Shown: positions 3,242 through 25,462 of the stretch, piece after piece | Position numbering within the stretch: position 1 is the stretch's first letter | How the letters are laid out: every line of letters starts with the position of its first letter | Source of the DNA: Candidatus Komeilibacteria bacterium RIFOXYD1_FULL_37_29 | Lineage (GTDB): Bacteria > Patescibacteriota > Patescibacteriia > UBA1558 > GWA2-36-10 | Direction: 5' to 3' | DNA length: 32,862 bases | Assembly (NCBI GenBank): GCA_001818495.1 | Contig: MHKS01000005.1 | Span: 81,326 to 114,187 of the forward strand | Position numbers and translations under genes: made by a program | Notes under the pieces: model-generated | The model's database searches: none | What the model saw: the letters and a program-made list of their open reading frames with translations, nothing else | What the model was told of the DNA's origin: nothing

Positions 3242-4168
3242 ATGGATTTAAGTGTAGTTGTGCCTTTATACAATGAAGAGGGGTCGCTTAGAGAGCTGAA
3301 TAAAAAATTGCAGAGTGTTTTAAGCCGTTTAAACATTAATTACGAAATTTTGTATATTGATGACGGTTCTCGTGATAATTCCGTAAAAATTTTAAAAGAA
3401 TTAGCCGTCCAAGATAGGCATTTAAAGATTATCCAGCATAAGAGAAATTTTGGTAAGTCGACGGCCTTGGCAGTAGCCTTTAGTAAGACAGAGGGAGATT
3501 TGGTTGTGACCATGGATGCTGATTTGCAGGATGATCCGGAAGAGATTCCTCGATTTATAGAGCAGATTAATCAGGGGTATGATTTAGTGTCTGGTTGGAA
3601 GCAAGATAGGCAAGATCCACTGGTTAAATTGATATCCTCTAAAATATTTAATTTAACCGTCTCCTTTTTATCGGGATTAAAAATTCATGATTTCAATTGT
3701 GGTTTTAAGATTTATAGAAAAGAGGTGGTCAAAAACCTAGAAATCTATGGGGAGCTACATAGGTTTCTGCCTTTTTTGGCTCATCAACAAGGATTTAGAG
3801 TTACTGAGATGAAAGTACAGCACCACGCTCGTAAATTTGGCGAGTCCAAATACGGGCATTTAGGATTAAGAAGGTTTAGTAATTATATTTTAGATCCTAT
3901 TAATGTAGTTTTTATAACCAAATATAAAAGAAAACCGGCTCATTTTTTTGGAAATTTGGGAATGATGGCTTTTGGTTTGGGAATTTTGATATGTATATAT
4001 TTAAGTATATTATGGTTTTGGGGGCAAGGCATTGGTAATAGGCCACTTTTATTTTTGGGTGTCCTTTTGATTATCATTGGTATACAACTTATAGCCATGG
4101 GTTTTTTGGGAGAATTGATTGTTCGAGAAAACATATCTAAAGATAAAGACGAATATATAAAGAAGTAA
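3242..4168 (+). CDS. GT2 polyprenyl-phosphate glycosyltransferase (ArnC/GtrB/CsbB/DPM1-like) with C-terminal TM helices
   Basis: LSVVVPLYNEE, ILYIDDGSRDNS and MDADLQDDPEEIP (the ArnC/DPM1-type DADLQ..PE motif), with two C-terminal hydrophobic helices (FFGNLGMMAFGLGILICIYL; LLFLGVLLIIIGIQLIAMGFL). Confidence 0.85.
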   Translation: MDLSVVVPLYNEEGSLRELNKKLQSVLSRLNINYEILYIDDGSRDNSVKILKELAVQDRHLKIIQHKRNFGKSTALAVAFSKTEGDLVVTMDADLQDDPEEIPRFIEQINQGYDLVSGWKQDRQDPLVKLISSKIFNLTVSFLSGLKIHDFNCGFKIYRKEVVKNLEIYGELHRFLPFLAHQQGFRVTEMKVQHHARKFGESKYGHLGLRRFSNYILDPINVVFITKYKRKPAHFFGNLGMMAFGLGILICIYLSILWFWGQGIGNRPLLFLGVLLIIIGIQLIAMGFLGELIVRENISKDKDEYIKK

Positions 4169-10215: not shown

Positions 10216-10325
10216 AGATTTTTTATTATTTTATGAATGTAGCTTGTTAAGTTTATCTAAAAATGTAAAGATTGTCCATTTTTAATTAACGGGATAATTT
10301 ATTATATATTTTTACTACATTTATT

Positions 10326-10390
10326 AAAAAATATACAGCAACTAGAGTTGCTAATTTAAATATATTAAAAAGAGACCACTTAATGTGATC
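10326..10390 (-). terminator. Two tandem hairpin terminators downstream of the 10408-11508 gene
   Basis: The minus strand reads GATCAC-attaa-GTGGTC then TCTTTTTAAT (10390-10363), followed by AGCAAC-tcta-GTTGCT then GTATATTTTTT (10352-10326). Confidence 0.55.
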
Positions 10391-10407
10391 AAGTAGCCCC
10401 TTCATTT

Positions 10408-11508
10408 TCATTCAAGCAGATAGTTAGTCGGCAGCGTGATGTTTATATAACCACGTGAAATCGTAGTTTGACAAGGTTTAAGGTTTAATTCTTCTGTCCA
10501 ATTAGCTAGAGCTGGTTTAGTGGTTTTATTTTTAATTTTGAAAAAACCACGTGCTCGCCAGAATGTGACATTGTGCCGATGAAGATTCAATGGAATGGTG
10601 CGGTAGTAAATTTTATTCAAAACCAGACTTGATGGAGTATCAGGAACTGGTGGGGTAAACGCTAATTTAATATATCCATTCCAATCAGGATTTACACCAG
10701 AGATGCCGAGAATACTATGTGTTAGGAGACTAGAAAAATACTTAGCTAGGAGTTGATTGATCATTTCATTATCTGCCTCCGGATACATTTTTTTGCATCT
10801 AGCGCGATAGAAATTAAGTTGTTTTTTAGGTAACGATCCTTTCCAACCATACCTCAGTAATTCAACTGGAATTTTAACTTTCGAATCGGATATTTCGGCA
10901 TAATCCGAAGCCTTAATCAATTCGGCGAAATAAGTTTCCAGTGATGAAGCAGTATTGAAAAAAATATCACCTGTTGTTATCGTGCTTTCTCGCAAAGTAT
11001 GTATGAATGAATCGTAACTAAAAAGCTTGATCAATGTTTCGAATTGTTGCATGTAGGTAAGTATACTTTGTTTGGTATTTATAGTGTCATTTTCTAAATA
11101 CCAACCAGTGACATCTTCAAGGCGAACTGTATATGATAGCCCTGGTTTGTAATGGGCTAGCACGCGTTTGTGTAAACAGGCCATAGTTTTGATTGCTGAA
11201 AGTTCAGCGATATCAACACCTTCATTAATCACTGGCTTTTTAGGTGCGGTCGGGACTAATATCGGAATGGGCTGGTTAATAGAAATATAATATGATATAA
11301 TTTTTCGTAGTACTTCTTGAGAGTCATCGTTTGGTATGGGACCAACACGAGTCTGTCGAGTACCCACCAGTTCATTTAGAACAGCTTCAATTTGGCTACT
11401 GTTTGTTATAGGTTTTTGTGGAAATTCATTTCTAAAAAATGAGGCAACGTCTTCGGCCTGTGAATCATTAAGCCCCTCAATTTGTATAAGTAAATCGCTA
11501 CTAGCCAT
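10408..11508 (-). CDS. Hypothetical 366-aa cytoplasmic protein with a weak motif-level resemblance to the PvcA/Dit1 (isonitrile synthase) family
   Basis: The gene is well supported: consensus promoter, SD GGGAG 8 nt upstream of the ATG, and terminators. The function is uncertain. QPIPILVPTAPKKPVIN..VDIAELSAIKTMACLHKRVLAHYKPGLSYTV parallels my recollection of the PvcA/Dit1 signature (h-h-LPaFPxKSpN...PDxAE..aL..L......Y.PG..h.I). IKLAFTPP parallels RLSIHP, but the SDG and His positions are not conserved. The confidence value refers to the family hint. Confidence 0.4.
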   Translation of the reverse strand: MASSDLLIQIEGLNDSQAEDVASFFRNEFPQKPITNSSQIEAVLNELVGTRQTRVGPIPNDDSQEVLRKIISYYISINQPIPILVPTAPKKPVINEGVDIAELSAIKTMACLHKRVLAHYKPGLSYTVRLEDVTGWYLENDTINTKQSILTYMQQFETLIKLFSYDSFIHTLRESTITTGDIFFNTASSLETYFAELIKASDYAEISDSKVKIPVELLRYGWKGSLPKKQLNFYRARCKKMYPEADNEMINQLLAKYFSSLLTHSILGISGVNPDWNGYIKLAFTPPVPDTPSSLVLNKIYYRTIPLNLHRHNVTFWRARGFFKIKNKTTKPALANWTEELNLKPCQTTISRGYINITLPTNYLLE

Positions 11509-11555
11509 TTTTTTAACTCCCTTTGATTGTTAAGGAACATTTTTTCTTTTCAAAT

Positions 11556-11585
11556 TAGTATATTAAGTATACTAAAAAATGTCAA
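11556..11585 (-). promoter_or_regulatory. Consensus promoter TTGACA-17-TATACT, with the -10 box inside a 7-5-7 palindrome that may be an operator
   Basis: The minus strand reads TTGACA (11585-11580) ttttttagtatacttaa TATACT (11562-11557). The inverted repeat TAGTATA-nnnnn-TATACTA spans 11556-11574 and covers the -10 box. Confidence 0.6.
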
Positions 11586-11783: not shown

Positions 11784-11808
11784 GCGGGGAAGTCAAAGAC
11801 TTCCCCGC
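11784..11808 (-). terminator. Perfect 11-bp GC-rich hairpin 4 nt after the ORF67 stop
   Basis: GCGGGGAAGTC-aaa-GACTTCCCCGC. It shares the CCCCGC/GCGGGG arms and GTCAAA centre with the palindromes at 15321 and 21073. No clean U-run follows on the minus strand. Confidence 0.5.
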
Positions 11809-11812
11809 ATTA

Positions 11813-12016
11813 TTAGTTTGGAAATTTTTTAAGCCAGGCATTTTGCGCAGCTTTTTCCATGGTTGGGCCATGCCCGATGATATCCCGACTTTTGCTGGGA
11901 TGAAGATTATCAAGTAGGGCGGTATTGGGTCCGACCAAACGAATCTGGAAAGGACTAGAGCAATTGGGGTTGTGATGAAGCGAGAAGGTTACGGTACTGA
12001 GCATTTCTGTATACAT
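11813..12016 (-). CDS. Hypothetical small protein (67 aa)
   Basis: One of the strongest SD matches in the window, AAGGAG, lies 8 nt upstream of the ATG (the minus strand reads ctAAGGAGatgaaaccATG). Its own hairpin follows directly after the stop. The C-terminal IIGHGPTMEKAAQNAWLKKF loosely recalls the G.T.EEA motif of HicB/UPF0150-like domains. I have no confident family call. Confidence 0.55.
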   Translation of the reverse strand: MYTEMLSTVTFSLHHNPNCSSPFQIRLVGPNTALLDNLHPSKSRDIIGHGPTMEKAAQNAWLKKFPN

Positions 12017-12523: not shown

Positions 12524-13969
12524 TTATCGACTAGCTCCAGAATAAGTAATGGCCTGCATAATATTCCAATCCTCAGTGCTTTGTGGCACATGACCATAGA
12601 TATATTGGAAGGTCTTAATGCCCTGTCTTTCACTGTTGAGGTTTCTATTTTCGGCTTTCTGGCGAAGACCATAGGTCATAACTGTGACAGCGGCATTGTC
12701 ATTGGAATCAGTCATATCAGCATCGCGTAAATAGATTTTTCTAAATTCCTTCTTAGCTCTATTTTCGGATGTTTCACTAGTTTGAGAGGGCCAGCGACCA
12801 TTGGCAATTTTTATAGCATCAGCTACTTCATCTTCTGTTTCCGGCAATTTGTTGAAAGCGGATTTAAAAGAATAAATTACCGCAGCTCTTTCACCCTCAC
12901 CTAGCTTTTTAGTATTTTCATCAACACCGTAGGTAATAAATTGGTTTAAAGTATCTTTGACACTCTGAGTAATACTTCTGACATCAGACAAAAGAGAGCG
13001 GAGATATTTTATTTCATTTTCCTGTTCTCGAAGCTTGCTGCGTAGTTCTTGTAATTCATCTAAGATATCGCCTAAGTTGTTATCCAAGAGTTGTTGGGCC
13101 TTTTCTCTGATGATAGTTAGAGAATCAACAGTCGGCTTGGTTTTGATTTGATGGCTTGGGCCATTGTAAGTAGACAAGACAGCATTACCAGCTACTCGCT
13201 CATCACCATAAAGAGCAGTAATAGAGAAATAATAAATTTGGCCAGTTTGCAGGTAACCACCAAAATCACCACGAACATATTCACTGCCATTATTTAAAAG
13301 AATAGAAGTGGTATTGGGGTCAGTGATGTATCTAGCATAGCCATGATCAGGATATTTTGGTTTATTTTTATCTCTAGAAATTACTACTTTATAGCCAGTA
13401 AAATCATCATGGTTGATTTTTTTCCAGCTCAAAAGCACGCCGTTAGTGGAGGAAGTAGCTGTTACTTCTGGTACAGGATAGTTGACAGCAGTCGTGTCAT
13501 CACTATCATCATTTACATCTTCATCTGTATCATCACTGACGCTGACGCCAGGATAAGTAAGGTGCAAAACATTGCCGGTCACTCTTTGGCCACAGCCATA
13601 GACAGCCGTGACGGTGAAGTAATAATCCTCGTCTTCTTCCAAGTAACTACCAGTAATATCTCCGCCATTGTAGACCGTGGAATTGTTGATAGTATAAGAA
13701 GTGGTTTCACGATTAGTAATGTATTTTAGATAGCCGTTGTCTGGATAAGATGGTGTAGAGTCACCTTTGGAAATGACTAGTTTGTAGCCAGATAAATTAG
13801 TATGGTCTATCTGATCCCAAGATAATAAAATGTTACTCTCGTTTAGAGTAGCTTCTACTACGGGGATAGGCAGATTATCGTCACAGGTAGTAGTAACAGG
13901 GTCGACTGCCAAGCTGACATTAGGAGTCAGTAGTATAAACGACAAGGCTAAGATAATGTTTTTGTGCAT
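12524..13969 (-). CDS. Secreted protein: signal peptide, two tandem FN3-like repeats of about 105 aa, an acidic linker, a coiled coil and a C-terminal domain ending ITYSGASR
   Basis: Signal peptide MHKNIILALSFILLTPNVSLA. Repeat 1 reads ILLSWDQIDHTNLSGYKLVISKGDSTPSYPDNGYLKYIT...YYFTVTAVYG. Repeat 2 reads VLLSWKKINHDDFTGYKVVISRDKNKPKYPDHGYARYIT...YYFSITALYG. Coiled coil: LDELQELRSKLREQENEIKYLRSLL. Confidence 0.75.
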   Translation of the reverse strand: MHKNIILALSFILLTPNVSLAVDPVTTTCDDNLPIPVVEATLNESNILLSWDQIDHTNLSGYKLVISKGDSTPSYPDNGYLKYITNRETTSYTINNSTVYNGGDITGSYLEEDEDYYFTVTAVYGCGQRVTGNVLHLTYPGVSVSDDTDEDVNDDSDDTTAVNYPVPEVTATSSTNGVLLSWKKINHDDFTGYKVVISRDKNKPKYPDHGYARYITDPNTTSILLNNGSEYVRGDFGGYLQTGQIYYFSITALYGDERVAGNAVLSTYNGPSHQIKTKPTVDSLTIIREKAQQLLDNNLGDILDELQELRSKLREQENEIKYLRSLLSDVRSITQSVKDTLNQFITYGVDENTKKLGEGERAAVIYSFKSAFNKLPETEDEVADAIKIANGRWPSQTSETSENRAKKEFRKIYLRDADMTDSNDNAAVTVMTYGLRQKAENRNLNSERQGIKTFQYIYGHVPQSTEDWNIMQAITYSGASR

Positions 13970-15320: not shown

Positions 15321-15350
15321 AAAAATCCCGCGTCAAACGCGGGGATTTTT
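15321..15350. terminator. Bidirectional terminator, copy 1 of a repeated palindrome
   Basis: AAAAATCCCGCG-tcaaa-CGCGGGGATTTTT lies between convergent genes. It shares an identical 19-nt core, CGTCAAACGCGGGGATTTT, with the reverse complement of 21073-21106. Confidence 0.75.
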
Positions 15351-16765
15351 TATTTGATGTATTTTGCGTATTTAAGATAGTTGGGGCTATTTTTCCAAGT
15401 GTGCCAGTCTATATCTGGATGAACGGTGTAGCCATCTAATTTTATATACATGACAATGGCATCAATTGGGTAATCGCCATAGCTATAAGCATTAATTAGC
15501 ATTTGCCAGGTGCTAGGGCTTATATAAATATAAGGTATTTTTTTATCGACAGCTTTTTTTAGTTCAGTCGCTTTACTTTGCTCATATTTTAGATCTAAGC
15601 GTGGCTGTCCGTAAAAAAAGTCTATTTTTTTATTCCACTGGCCAGGACCAAAAGGATTGTAGCCGTTTTGTACTTCTGTTCCGTCACGGTAGCCATCATT
15701 ATCGGTGTCAGAATCTTGGGGATCGGTACCAATGGTTATTTCAAAGCTGTTGCTTAATTTATCATTGTCATCATCAGGATTATTAGCAGCATCTTTGATA
15801 CCCAGGACAGCTCCCTTTTTGGTAATAAAGCTAAGTCCCTTTACTTCGGCTTTCTTTTTGTATAAAGATCCGTAAACAGAGATATTATAATAATAAGTAG
15901 TGTCTGGTTTGAGCTCTTTGATAGTGACTTCATGATCAGTACTAATCTGTGCTTCATTAATTTGTATTTTTTTAGTCAATCTATTAGGGTCAGCCCCATA
16001 TTTGATGTATGATTTTGTCGGCAGATTAGTTTCAAATTTTATGGTAGCCTGATTAGTTGACACAAGGTTGTTAGCAGAACTAATGGGCTCAATGTTTTTG
16101 ATATTGATAACACTGGCCTTATTAAATTGAGCATAAATATTTACATGTAAAGTGGCACTTTTTTTATTACCAGCTTTATCATGGATAGTTATTTTAATAT
16201 AATACTCCGAGTAGGTATCTAAATTGTAGACAAAATACTCATGATATTTTTTATAGCTACTTATTTTTTTGGTAGTTTTTTTAGTGCTATCTCCTTTTTT
16301 ATAATATTGGATTTCGGCGGCTACTTTTTCACTAGCCTCCCAAGATATAGCCACGGCATTGCCAACGGTCTGGATGACCTGATGATCTATAAAACTAGGC
16401 GCTTGGGTGTCTAACATATCTTTGGTAGAAAAAGATCGAGGATAGAGGGTTGTTTTCTCCCCATCGTTTGAGTATAGGATTATCTGGTAATAATAATTTT
16501 TGTTTTCTTCTAGACCATAAAGATTGGCTTGGTGAATTTTTTTGGCCGGGTAAGATAACTTTTTATCTAACTTGGTGGCCTCTAAACCATAGTAAACTTC
16601 GCTCCTAGCATAATCATTGGTTGTCCATTTTAAAATCGCTTGGCCGTCTTTGATGTCTCCTATTTGTATATTATAAACAGAGATTTGAGCTGAAACGCTA
16701 AATCCATAGGCAAAGGAGCTAACTCCTAAGGCGATAATTAATACTATTTTTAGCCAATTTTTCAT
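15350..16765 (-). CDS. Secreted protein: signal peptide, three FN3-like repeats, an Asp-rich TSP3-like Ca-binding segment and a C-terminal domain
   Basis: I use the ATG at 16765 (MKNWLKIVLIIALGVSSFAYG) because a perfect promoter lies inside the longer ORF-track version (to 16810). Repeats end in NYYYQIILYS, EYYIKITIHD and TYYYNISVYG. The Asp-rich segment is NPDDDNDKLSN...DPQDSDTDNDGYRDGTEV. Confidence 0.75.
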   Translation of the reverse strand: MKNWLKIVLIIALGVSSFAYGFSVSAQISVYNIQIGDIKDGQAILKWTTNDYARSEVYYGLEATKLDKKLSYPAKKIHQANLYGLEENKNYYYQIILYSNDGEKTTLYPRSFSTKDMLDTQAPSFIDHQVIQTVGNAVAISWEASEKVAAEIQYYKKGDSTKKTTKKISSYKKYHEYFVYNLDTYSEYYIKITIHDKAGNKKSATLHVNIYAQFNKASVINIKNIEPISSANNLVSTNQATIKFETNLPTKSYIKYGADPNRLTKKIQINEAQISTDHEVTIKELKPDTTYYYNISVYGSLYKKKAEVKGLSFITKKGAVLGIKDAANNPDDDNDKLSNSFEITIGTDPQDSDTDNDGYRDGTEVQNGYNPFGPGQWNKKIDFFYGQPRLDLKYEQSKATELKKAVDKKIPYIYISPSTWQMLINAYSYGDYPIDAIVMYIKLDGYTVHPDIDWHTWKNSPNYLKYAKYIK

Positions 16766-16798
16766 AAATATAGCTGTTTTTCTATTATTTAATATGGA

Positions 16799-16827
16799 AT
16801 TATAACACATTTTATAAAATATGTCAA
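16799..16827 (-). promoter_or_regulatory. Perfect consensus promoter TTGACA-17-TATAAT
   Basis: The minus strand reads TTGACA (16827-16822) tattttataaaatgtgt TATAAT (16804-16799). The upstream ATG at 16810 lies inside the spacer. Confidence 0.7.
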
Positions 16828-24937: not shown

Positions 24938-25462
24938 TTATAACAATTTTAAGTGATCCAAGCCTAGATAGCCGGATTCTATATCAGTTAACTGGCCGTT
25001 TCGTAAATGTTTTTTAAAATCTTCTAAAGGCACTTCCACTGTTTCGATAAACTCAGTGGCGTCTAATTTTTGTTCTTGTATTTTGTGACAATTGGTAGCA
25101 ATAAAATTATACCTCAGCATAGTAGAATAAGCGCAATCCCAGCTTTTACCAACAAATTTGAAATCACCAGTATAGCCTGTTTCTTCCAGAAATTCTCTTT
25201 TGGCAGCTTGCTTGGGTGTTTCATTTTTATCAATTACGCCACCAGGCAACTCTAGTAGTATCTTCTCTGGTCCGGGCCTAAACTGTTTAGTCAAAACAAC
25301 TTGATTGTTTTTAGTCAGTGCCAAAACACAAACCACTGGGCCCTCATGTTTAATGTCAAAAATAGCTGTTTTATTATCAGGTAATTGAAAAGTCTTTTTT
25401 ATTAATTTTCTAAAGCCAGCTGTAAAGGGCTTTTCTTTAATTTTCTTCCATTGTTTGATCAT
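24938..25462 (-). CDS. NUDIX hydrolase (ADP-ribose pyrophosphatase-like)
   Basis: Complete Nudix box GGVIDKNETPKQAAKREFLEETGY (GX5EX7REUXEEXGU). Confidence 0.85.
   Translation of the reverse strand: MIKQWKKIKEKPFTAGFRKLIKKTFQLPDNKTAIFDIKHEGPVVCVLALTKNNQVVLTKQFRPGPEKILLELPGGVIDKNETPKQAAKREFLEETGYTGDFKFVGKSWDCAYSTMLRYNFIATNCHKIQEQKLDATEFIETVEVPLEDFKKHLRNGQLTDIESGYLGLDHLKLL

Follow-up and report, generated by a model that had tools for sequence, protein, structure and literature searches.

A mainly phage-borne, unannotated protein family, sister to the isonitrile synthases and with replaced catalytic motifs, represented in a Candidatus Komeilibacteria genome

The window analysed here, a stretch of 32,862 nucleotides (nt) from the genome of Candidatus Komeilibacteria bacterium RIFOXYD1_FULL_37_29 (contig MHKS01000005.1, positions 81,326 to 114,187), encodes a protein of 366 amino acids (aa) that belongs to a new and unannotated family, sister to the PvcA/IsnA/Dit1 isonitrile synthases. 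Structural models give this protein the PvcA/IsnA/Dit1 fold across its whole chain, and profile comparisons place it outside the Pfam family PF05141 (DIT1_PvcA), in a separate sister family. Because the catalytic motifs of the isonitrile synthases are replaced, its chemistry probably differs from theirs. The family is predominantly phage-borne, and the copy in the window is one of the few cellular representatives found.

A first-pass annotation of this DNA, made by eye from the letters and their translation, had proposed a PvcA/Dit1 fold, and both structural and profile searches bear it out. The AlphaFold (AF2) model of the protein reaches a predicted local distance difference test score (pLDDT) of 91.1 and a predicted template-modelling score (pTM) of 0.90. 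Its best Foldseek matches are 9dhm and 9dh4 (PIsnA, in complex with product and with L-Tyr, respectively) and 3e59 (PvcA), with E-values of 1e-11 to 4e-9 and template-modelling (TM) scores of 0.52-0.66 over ~346 aligned columns, and the top eight matches by score are all IsnA or PvcA chains. The model of P0008, a member of the phage clade (pLDDT 93.8), yields the same ranking, with IsnA and PvcA at the top. Tyrosyl- and tryptophanyl-tRNA synthetases (TyrRS, TrpRS) and cyclodipeptide synthases make up the next tier of Foldseek matches (E 1e-4 to 1e-3, probability ~1.0, TM ~0.3), and a search of the viral structures in BFVD returned only a giant-virus TyrRS and a weak cyclodipeptide-synthase match. 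In fold searches the isonitrile-synthase scaffold resembles the Rossmann fold of the class Ic aminoacyl-tRNA synthetases. Considering these TyrRS and TrpRS matches and the known superfamily substrates, Tyr and Trp, the isonitrile-synthase superfamily may descend from a class Ic catalytic domain.

When the single sequence is compared with Pfam, PF05141 is the top match (residues 71-181) with E 0.025 and 14.5 bits, against a gathering threshold of 26.4 bits. The corresponding search of the PDB likewise ranks PIsnA first, at a sub-threshold E of 0.06. PF05141 is also the top Pfam match, again below threshold, for eight of 14 family members (best member E 7.6e-4), and a profile built from these 14 members retrieves 9dhm (E 0.002) and PvcA 3e59 (E 0.032) from the PDB. 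The comparison set of authentic isocyanide synthases comprises seven full-length sequences taken from plasmid records, a 128-aa IsnA fragment used as query having returned fragments only. Aligned with these by hhalign, a profile of 138 family sequences matches over residues 59-186 with a probability of 96.7% and E 4e-10, and reciprocal hidden Markov model searches between family and synthases give up to 34 bits. In global hhalign the C-terminal motifs fall in register with those of the isonitrile synthases, and this low-confidence alignment agrees with the full-length structural match. Every segment that the first-pass annotation had lined up with PvcA by eye is aligned identically by HMMER and HH-suite. 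Scans of NCBIfam, PHROGs and PADLOC-DB (the latter two with the 14 members) gave no match, and neither Pfam nor NCBIfam returned a tRNA-synthetase or cyclodipeptide-synthase family.

The motifs FPxK..N, PDxxE, YxPGA, C(S/A)DG, R(L/A)(S/T)(I/V)HP and (T/F)PWH occur in six or seven of the seven authentic synthases, and it is from conservation among these seven alone that the catalytic residues of IsnA were inferred; residue frequencies in the family were computed over 159 representatives. Retained in the Rossmann-type N-terminal half of the family are K91, the Lys of FPxKSPN (100%), D99 (100%) and E102 (96%) of PDxAE, and Y120 (80%) and G123 (97%) of YxPGA; conservation does not extend to the Ser and Asn of KSPN. 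The SDG and conserved His positions had been described as replaced, which is what the alignments and residue frequencies reveal. CSDG or CADG is found in six of the seven synthases compared with none of the 159 family representatives, and the protein in the window reads R129-L-E131-D132-V-T-G-W at this site, after the third beta-strand. The His of SIHP, present in all seven synthases, is Ala, Val or Thr in the family (T285 in this protein), and an Arg takes the place of the His in PWH (Table 1). Residues R54, K91, D99, Y152, W317 and G321 are invariant (100%), E174, R303 and Y257 nearly so (99%), and W222 is a further family-specific conserved residue. The Patescibacteria clade keeps all family-invariant residues despite differing at four sites whose residue is shared by at least 89% of members (G88A, Y238C, R264H and H313N), substitutions that could signal a changed function in the cellular copies. 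The 366-aa protein has ~40 extra N-terminal residues compared with isonitrile synthases, and the N-terminal extensions of longer members contain no informative fusion. Among the authentic enzymes, the Hymenobacter isocyanide synthase has an N-terminal extension of ~230 aa.

The gene had at first been regarded as an orphan, a view that an exhaustive profile search overturns by recovering 650 clusters (at 50% identity) with E <= 1e-3 and 405 with E <= 1e-30; a word-indexed search found 14 proteins only. All named family matches are called "hypothetical protein", including the nearest homologue, a protein of 78% identity in a metagenome-assembled genome (MAG) of Patescibacteria, and none carries a Pfam domain. 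Nor is the gene a curiosity of a streamlined genome, as had been thought. Two scans of IMG/VR identified ~28 distinct viral contigs of 17-223 kb, with a guanine-plus-cytosine (GC) content of 30-66% at the locus, and many further phage-like metagenomic contigs carry a family gene. In context look-ups, the loci of distant members consist of runs of small same-strand open reading frames (ORFs), among them genes for SNF2, PIF1, UvrD and MCM helicases, DNA/RNA ligases, Dam-type methylases, Fic, DUF932 and TROVE-like proteins. Family members surrounded by cellular genes were found only in the Patescibacteria clade of the window and in P0005, which lies on a bacterial contig. When 185,579 species genomes were scanned with a strict motif, the Patescibacteria MAG was the one positive; the scans used a narrow alignment, and the cellular distribution so obtained is a lower bound. 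The possibility that the gene is a syntenic core gene of related genomes, raised by the first-pass annotation, does not agree with this single positive, the observed synteny extending to two close Patescibacteria relatives.

No iron- and 2-oxoglutarate-dependent (Fe/2OG) dioxygenase or P450 is encoded within the 32.9-kb window, as had been claimed, and the same is true of the family at large: a dioxygenase, P450 or other tailoring or export partner was found in none of ~40 family loci. As a positive control, four of the authentic synthases sampled (L030, L031, L034 and L037) adjoin a P450, a TauD-family dioxygenase or a major facilitator superfamily (MFS) efflux gene. These four loci are on plasmids of Streptomyces, Hymenobacter and Burkholderia. 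All-against-all BLAST of the neighbouring genes at 22 and then 31 loci revealed nothing shared beyond close relatives. Since no conserved partner emerges over 31 loci, the solitary state is a property of the family and not a quirk of this genome.

Individual lineages nevertheless have three independent neighbours (PncB, an isochorismatase-like protein and a NUDIX protein) that provide weak hints of pentose-phosphate or NAD-related chemistry. In the related GC-rich phage-like contigs L040 (8001-10363) and L041 (6727-9064), the family gene is directly followed by pncB, the gene for nicotinate phosphoribosyltransferase, identified by NCBIfam NF003704 (409-417 bits vs a cut-off of 379); its start codon overlaps the stop of the family gene in L040 (9098/9095) and directly adjoins it in L041 (7818/7820). 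Genes for ferritin and for an RF-1-like release factor are located a few kb downstream on these contigs. In L072 (7522-9092) and L073 (2324-3894), which represent a phage-like contig with ~40 small ORFs, the family gene is preceded, at a distance of 24 nt, by a gene for a 151-aa isochorismatase-like hydrolase. At L038, a partly rearranged orthologous locus, the divergent upstream neighbour of the orthologue is a NUDIX gene (3730-4113, minus strand) with weak similarity to NudE and ADP-ribose (ADPR) pyrophosphatases. The window contains a homologue of this NUDIX gene 13 kb away (24938-25462, minus strand), which indicates local rearrangement in this clade of the candidate phyla radiation (CPR). 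Seeded with these three neighbours (pncB, NUDIX and isochorismatase-like) and with the RmlD-like one, jackhmmer detected no further copies near other family members.

On balance we lean, by a modest degree, towards an enzyme that acts on small molecules without a partner. It would catalyse either the condensation of an amine or amino acid with a phosphorylated substrate of sugar type or the corresponding cleavage, giving a non-canonical product. The protein would be a soluble enzyme built on the isonitrile-synthase scaffold, its sister family having a rebuilt active site. The retained motifs (K91, D99/E102 and Y-x-P-G) would hold a phosphorylated sugar-type co-substrate together with an amine or alpha-amino acid, as in IsnA, which uses Tyr or Trp and, as co-substrate, ribulose-5-phosphate (PMC7949033); a pentose-phosphate-type co-substrate is plausible for this reason. 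The phosphate may be bound by the loop that follows the first strand, and the amine by the acidic residues. The new set of Arg, Glu, Asp, Tyr and Trp residues would then steer C-N condensation, or its reversal, away from the canonical isonitrile, and an oxidative tailoring enzyme would not be needed. The family median isoelectric point (pI) of 6.3 and the cluster of invariant charged residues appear to be more in keeping with a small-molecule enzyme than with a protein that binds nucleic acids. For phages, the gene would serve as an accessory function that moves as a single gene and is located in early regions and replication regions. In the Patescibacteria lineage a copy appears to have become fixed in the chromosome between cspA and the gene for an RmlD-like reductase, where it would be transcribed alone; a possible role of this CPR copy in sugar-nucleotide chemistry is hinted at by the RmlD-like gene next to it.

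Several observations weigh against this interpretation. All three His residues conserved in isonitrile synthases are gone, and the assignment of an amine and a sugar phosphate as substrates may therefore be wrong. The C-terminal half of the protein aligns in global mode only, with low confidence. The four departures in the CPR proteins (G88A, Y238C, R264H and H313N) may mean that their activity differs from that of the phage proteins. Finally, tblastn against 50,697 GenBank phage records detected no homologue, and because no cultured GenBank phage carries a detectable one there is no experimental handle yet.

The alternatives differ mainly in how far they trust the retained motifs or the scattered neighbours. 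The protein could be an isonitrile synthase that is still functional despite its strong divergence, or it could resemble Dit1 as an N-formyl-amino-acid synthase; it would then turn Tyr or Trp and ribulose-5-phosphate into an isonitrile or a formamide with other residues acting as acid and base. This would explain the identical full-length fold and the retention of K91, D99/E102 and Y-x-P-G, and the Foldseek order, in which IsnA and PvcA fill the first eight places and the Tyr- and Trp-tRNA synthetases come next, suits an aromatic amino-acid pocket. However, the score of 14.5 bits stays below the Pfam threshold of 26.4, the SDG(H), SIHP His and PWH His of six to seven of the seven authentic synthases are replaced family-wide, and the gene never has a TauD/PvcB dioxygenase, P450 or efflux gene as its neighbour, unlike the authentic synthases sampled. 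We consider such an activity improbable. To much the same degree we doubt that the protein acts on a pentose-phosphate metabolite of NAD+ turnover (ribose-5-phosphate, ribulose-5-phosphate, phosphoribosyl pyrophosphate, ADPR or an ADPR-amino-acid conjugate), through which phages and metabolically dependent CPR cells would rebuild NAD+ or clear ADPR-type immune signals. The pncB genes of L040 and L041, the isochorismatase-like genes of L072 and L073 and the NUDIX gene of L038 would be in line with this function, as would ribulose-5-phosphate as the co-substrate of IsnA (PMC7949033). Yet each of these neighbours is restricted to single lineages and missing at every other locus, no such protein occurs in NARP1 to NARP3, the phage NAD+ pathways described, and neither PADLOC nor PHROGs gave a match. 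The isochorismatase-like protein of L072 and L073, moreover, appears to lack the His-rich metal-binding motif characteristic of the nicotinamidase PncA.

The second tier of Foldseek matches (TyrRS, TrpRS and cyclodipeptide synthases, E 1e-4 to 1e-3) and the genes for RNA ligase, TROVE-like and Fic proteins that accompany the family in phage early or accessory regions at some loci would be compatible with a non-catalytic ligand sponge, or with an aminoacyl-tRNA-dependent enzyme resembling the cyclodipeptide synthases. Of all the functions considered here this one seems the least credible: the TM score to these folds is ~0.3 vs 0.55-0.66 for IsnA and PvcA, the mildly acidic character of the family (median pI 6.3) would be unusual among tRNA binders, and about ten invariant charged or aromatic residues suit catalysis over passive binding. 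A bolder proposal, which we regard as rather unlikely, is that the 366-aa protein is the first to be recognised from a phage-dominated family of at least 650 clusters, that the family performs a new reaction between an amino acid or amine and a pentose phosphate, used by phages against their hosts, and that the Patescibacteria copy was captured from phages. Examples would be the formation of an inhibitory metabolite, the destruction of an ADPR-type immune signal, or a feed into NAD+ salvage, at which the co-transcription with pncB hints.

That the 366-aa ORF is a real gene, as the first-pass annotation had assumed, is borne out by ~650 homologue clusters and by its pattern of substitution. The orthologues at L001 and L038 have protein identities of 78% and 76%, and pairwise dN/dS (the ratio of non-synonymous to synonymous change) between the gene and these two is 0.15-0.18 at synonymous differences of 0.37-0.50, which shows purifying selection. 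Recent horizontal transfer was considered and rejected, the GC content of the gene being that of its surroundings. A 41-aa ORF (10286-10411, minus strand), which overlaps the stop codon of the gene in an ATGA and spans both terminator hairpins, most likely is not a gene because its counterpart in L001 stops after four codons.

With its own conserved consensus promoter and terminator, the gene is predicted to form an independent transcription unit with strong signals (Table 1). The separate promoter and the GGGAG Shine-Dalgarno (SD) sequence reported earlier are both present. The promoter score is the joint best of a 4-kb region, level with that of the divergent cspA promoter, and both hexamers are identical in L001 and L038. 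Approximately 190 bp upstream of the gene are conserved across all three orthologous loci, despite a different upstream gene in each, and ~40 nt of the 5' untranslated region (5'UTR) together with both hexamers are nearly identical in the orthologues, compared with 37-50% synonymous-site difference. The 5'UTR showed no significant structure in an analysis that also covered possible anti-SD pairing (z = 0.0, -1.2 and +1.7). The perfect palindrome over the -10 box, also reported earlier, exists as described, and L038 keeps it with one loop change despite ~50% synonymous-site difference. Its interpretation as an operator, which would place the gene under repressor control, did not hold up and is in our opinion unlikely. 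In L001 the palindrome is degenerate, with four of the seven left-arm bases kept and three changed, because the 17-nt spacer that holds this arm has six changes there, whereas the hexamers and 5'UTR are identical. Furthermore, the 32.9-kb window contains no second site, at least one site with two or fewer mismatches arises in 29 of 100 shuffles, the -10 hexamer itself is half of the palindrome, and the window annotation includes no candidate DNA-binding gene near palindrome or gene. An operator function is not statistically supported by these comparisons, and repressor control of the gene is not supported. The direct repeat GAGAATTTAAA / AAGAATTAAAA, kept in all three orthologous loci, appears to be a better candidate for a regulatory site and may be an activator or UP-type site or bind another regulator. 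As for the two tandem terminators of the first-pass annotation, both hairpins are present and the first is kept in L001 with compensatory stem changes; the function of the second is doubtful because it is not conserved there.

Table 1. Positions of the gene, its coding landmarks and nearby sequence elements in the window.
Feature	Position	Strand	Remarks
Coding sequence of the 366-aa protein	10408..11508	-	ORF; full-length structural homologue of PvcA/IsnA, separate unannotated family
Rossmann-type N-terminal half, residues 59-186	10951..11334	-	Sequence homology to PF05141; keeps K91, D99/E102, Y120-x-P-G123
R129-L-E131-D132 motif	11113..11124	-	R 91%, E 98%, D 97%; occupies the C-S-D-G-(H/R) site of isonitrile synthases
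W317-R318	10555..10560	-	W 100%, R 86%; aligned to (T/F)PWH, His replaced by Arg; His in 7/7 authentic synthases
Predicted sigma-70-type promoter, TTGACA-17-TATACT	11557..11585	-	11/12 consensus positions
Shine-Dalgarno sequence GGGAG	11517..11521	-	8 nt before ATG; GGAG kept in both orthologues
Perfect 7-5-7 palindrome, TAGTATA-N5-TATACTA	11556..11574		Overlaps -10 box; left arm in promoter spacer
Upstream block with direct repeat GAGAATTTAAA / AAGAATTAAAA	11650..11682	-	Starts 22 nt apart; ~100-130 nt before predicted transcription start
Predicted intrinsic terminator just past stop codon	10366..10400	-	Hairpin 10390-10374; 10-bp stem, 9-nt loop, T run
Second terminator-like hairpin	10336..10353	-	No counterpart in L001
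67-aa ORF between cspA and the upstream region of the gene	11813-12016	-	Own AGGAG ribosome-binding site; GC-rich strong terminator 11784-11808

The neighbours in the window are cellular genes. One flank of the gene comprises a GT2 gene, a GT1-methyltransferase glycosyltransferase gene and genes for GlmS, tRNA-Glu and the RmlD-like reductase, and the other the 67-aa ORF and genes for CspA, fn3 surface proteins, TsaD/TsaE, ValRS, PilB, FtsH and S1; the tRNA-Glu was the sole match in an Rfam scan of the window. L001 is syntenic with the window for cspA, the gene itself and the genes for the RmlD-like reductase, GlmS and the methyltransferase. The RmlD-like reductase gene downstream, syntenic in the CPR clade, has its own promoter-like site, and a terminator separates it from the gene. 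The 67-aa ORF, which has no Pfam match, had been put forward as a neighbour that might be conserved. It is missing from the orthologous intergenic regions of both L001 and L038 and was for that reason dismissed as a partner. Two large proteins with fn3, purple-acid-phosphatase-N and TSP3-repeat regions (12524-13969 and 15350-16810, both minus strand) flank an unannotated 404-aa ORF; they probably are surface or secreted proteins, and their synteny is kept in L001.

The few known activities of the fold are isonitrile formation and the apparent N-formylation by Dit1, and to our knowledge all known members with the isonitrile-synthase fold function in secondary metabolism. The chemistry of this scaffold would be broadened by a sister family whose active site has been rebuilt. 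The phage distribution of the family, combined with the loss of the catalytic His, would surprise specialists in the enzyme class. Families of remote fold that have no assigned role are common in phages; this one, if characterised, would be a candidate auxiliary or counter-defence enzyme for phage biology. Among the CPR, it would illustrate the fixation, in a minimal genome, of an accessory enzyme of phage type with a conserved promoter of its own. A practical gain is that the family can be defined by its diagnostic motifs PIPxLVPxGxK, VDxAE, RxED, YYRTxP and WR(A/G)(K/R)G.

Among characterised systems, the closest are IsnA, PvcA and AmbI1 (PF05141; 3E59, 9DH4 and 9DHM), which have the same full-length fold, a similar size and a homologous N-terminal half. 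The beta-strand-P-x-x-x-K loop, D-x-A-E, Y-x-P-G and the Trp of the C-terminal PW motif are shared with these enzymes. In contrast to them, the 366-aa protein has R-x-E-D for SDG(H), Ala, Val or Thr for the SIHP His and Arg for the PWH His and scores below the Pfam threshold, and its family is mainly carried by phages, outside biosynthetic gene clusters and with no dioxygenase, P450 or efflux partner. Yeast Dit1, which forms N-formyl-tyrosine for the spore wall, is of the same superfamily and provides a precedent for a non-isonitrile product of the PF05141 fold (PMC7345447). Dit1, however, is a regular PF05141 member that works with the P450 Dit2, whereas the protein described here lies outside PF05141 and has no partner. 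A deeper resemblance, the Rossmann-type fold of the catalytic domain, links it to the class Ic aminoacyl-tRNA synthetases TyrRS and TrpRS and to the cyclodipeptide synthases; it differs from the class Ic enzymes in the TM score of ~0.3, the missing anticodon-binding domain and the acidic-to-neutral charge of its family. The phage NAD+ pathways NARP1 (Adps and Namat), NARP2 (Nampt and Nmnat) and NARP3 (PnuC and NadR) consist of enzymes unrelated to the family in sequence or fold, and co-transcription with pncB is seen in one phage lineage, a small minority of the loci. The likeness to these pathways is one of context, the family too being a phage accessory metabolic gene.

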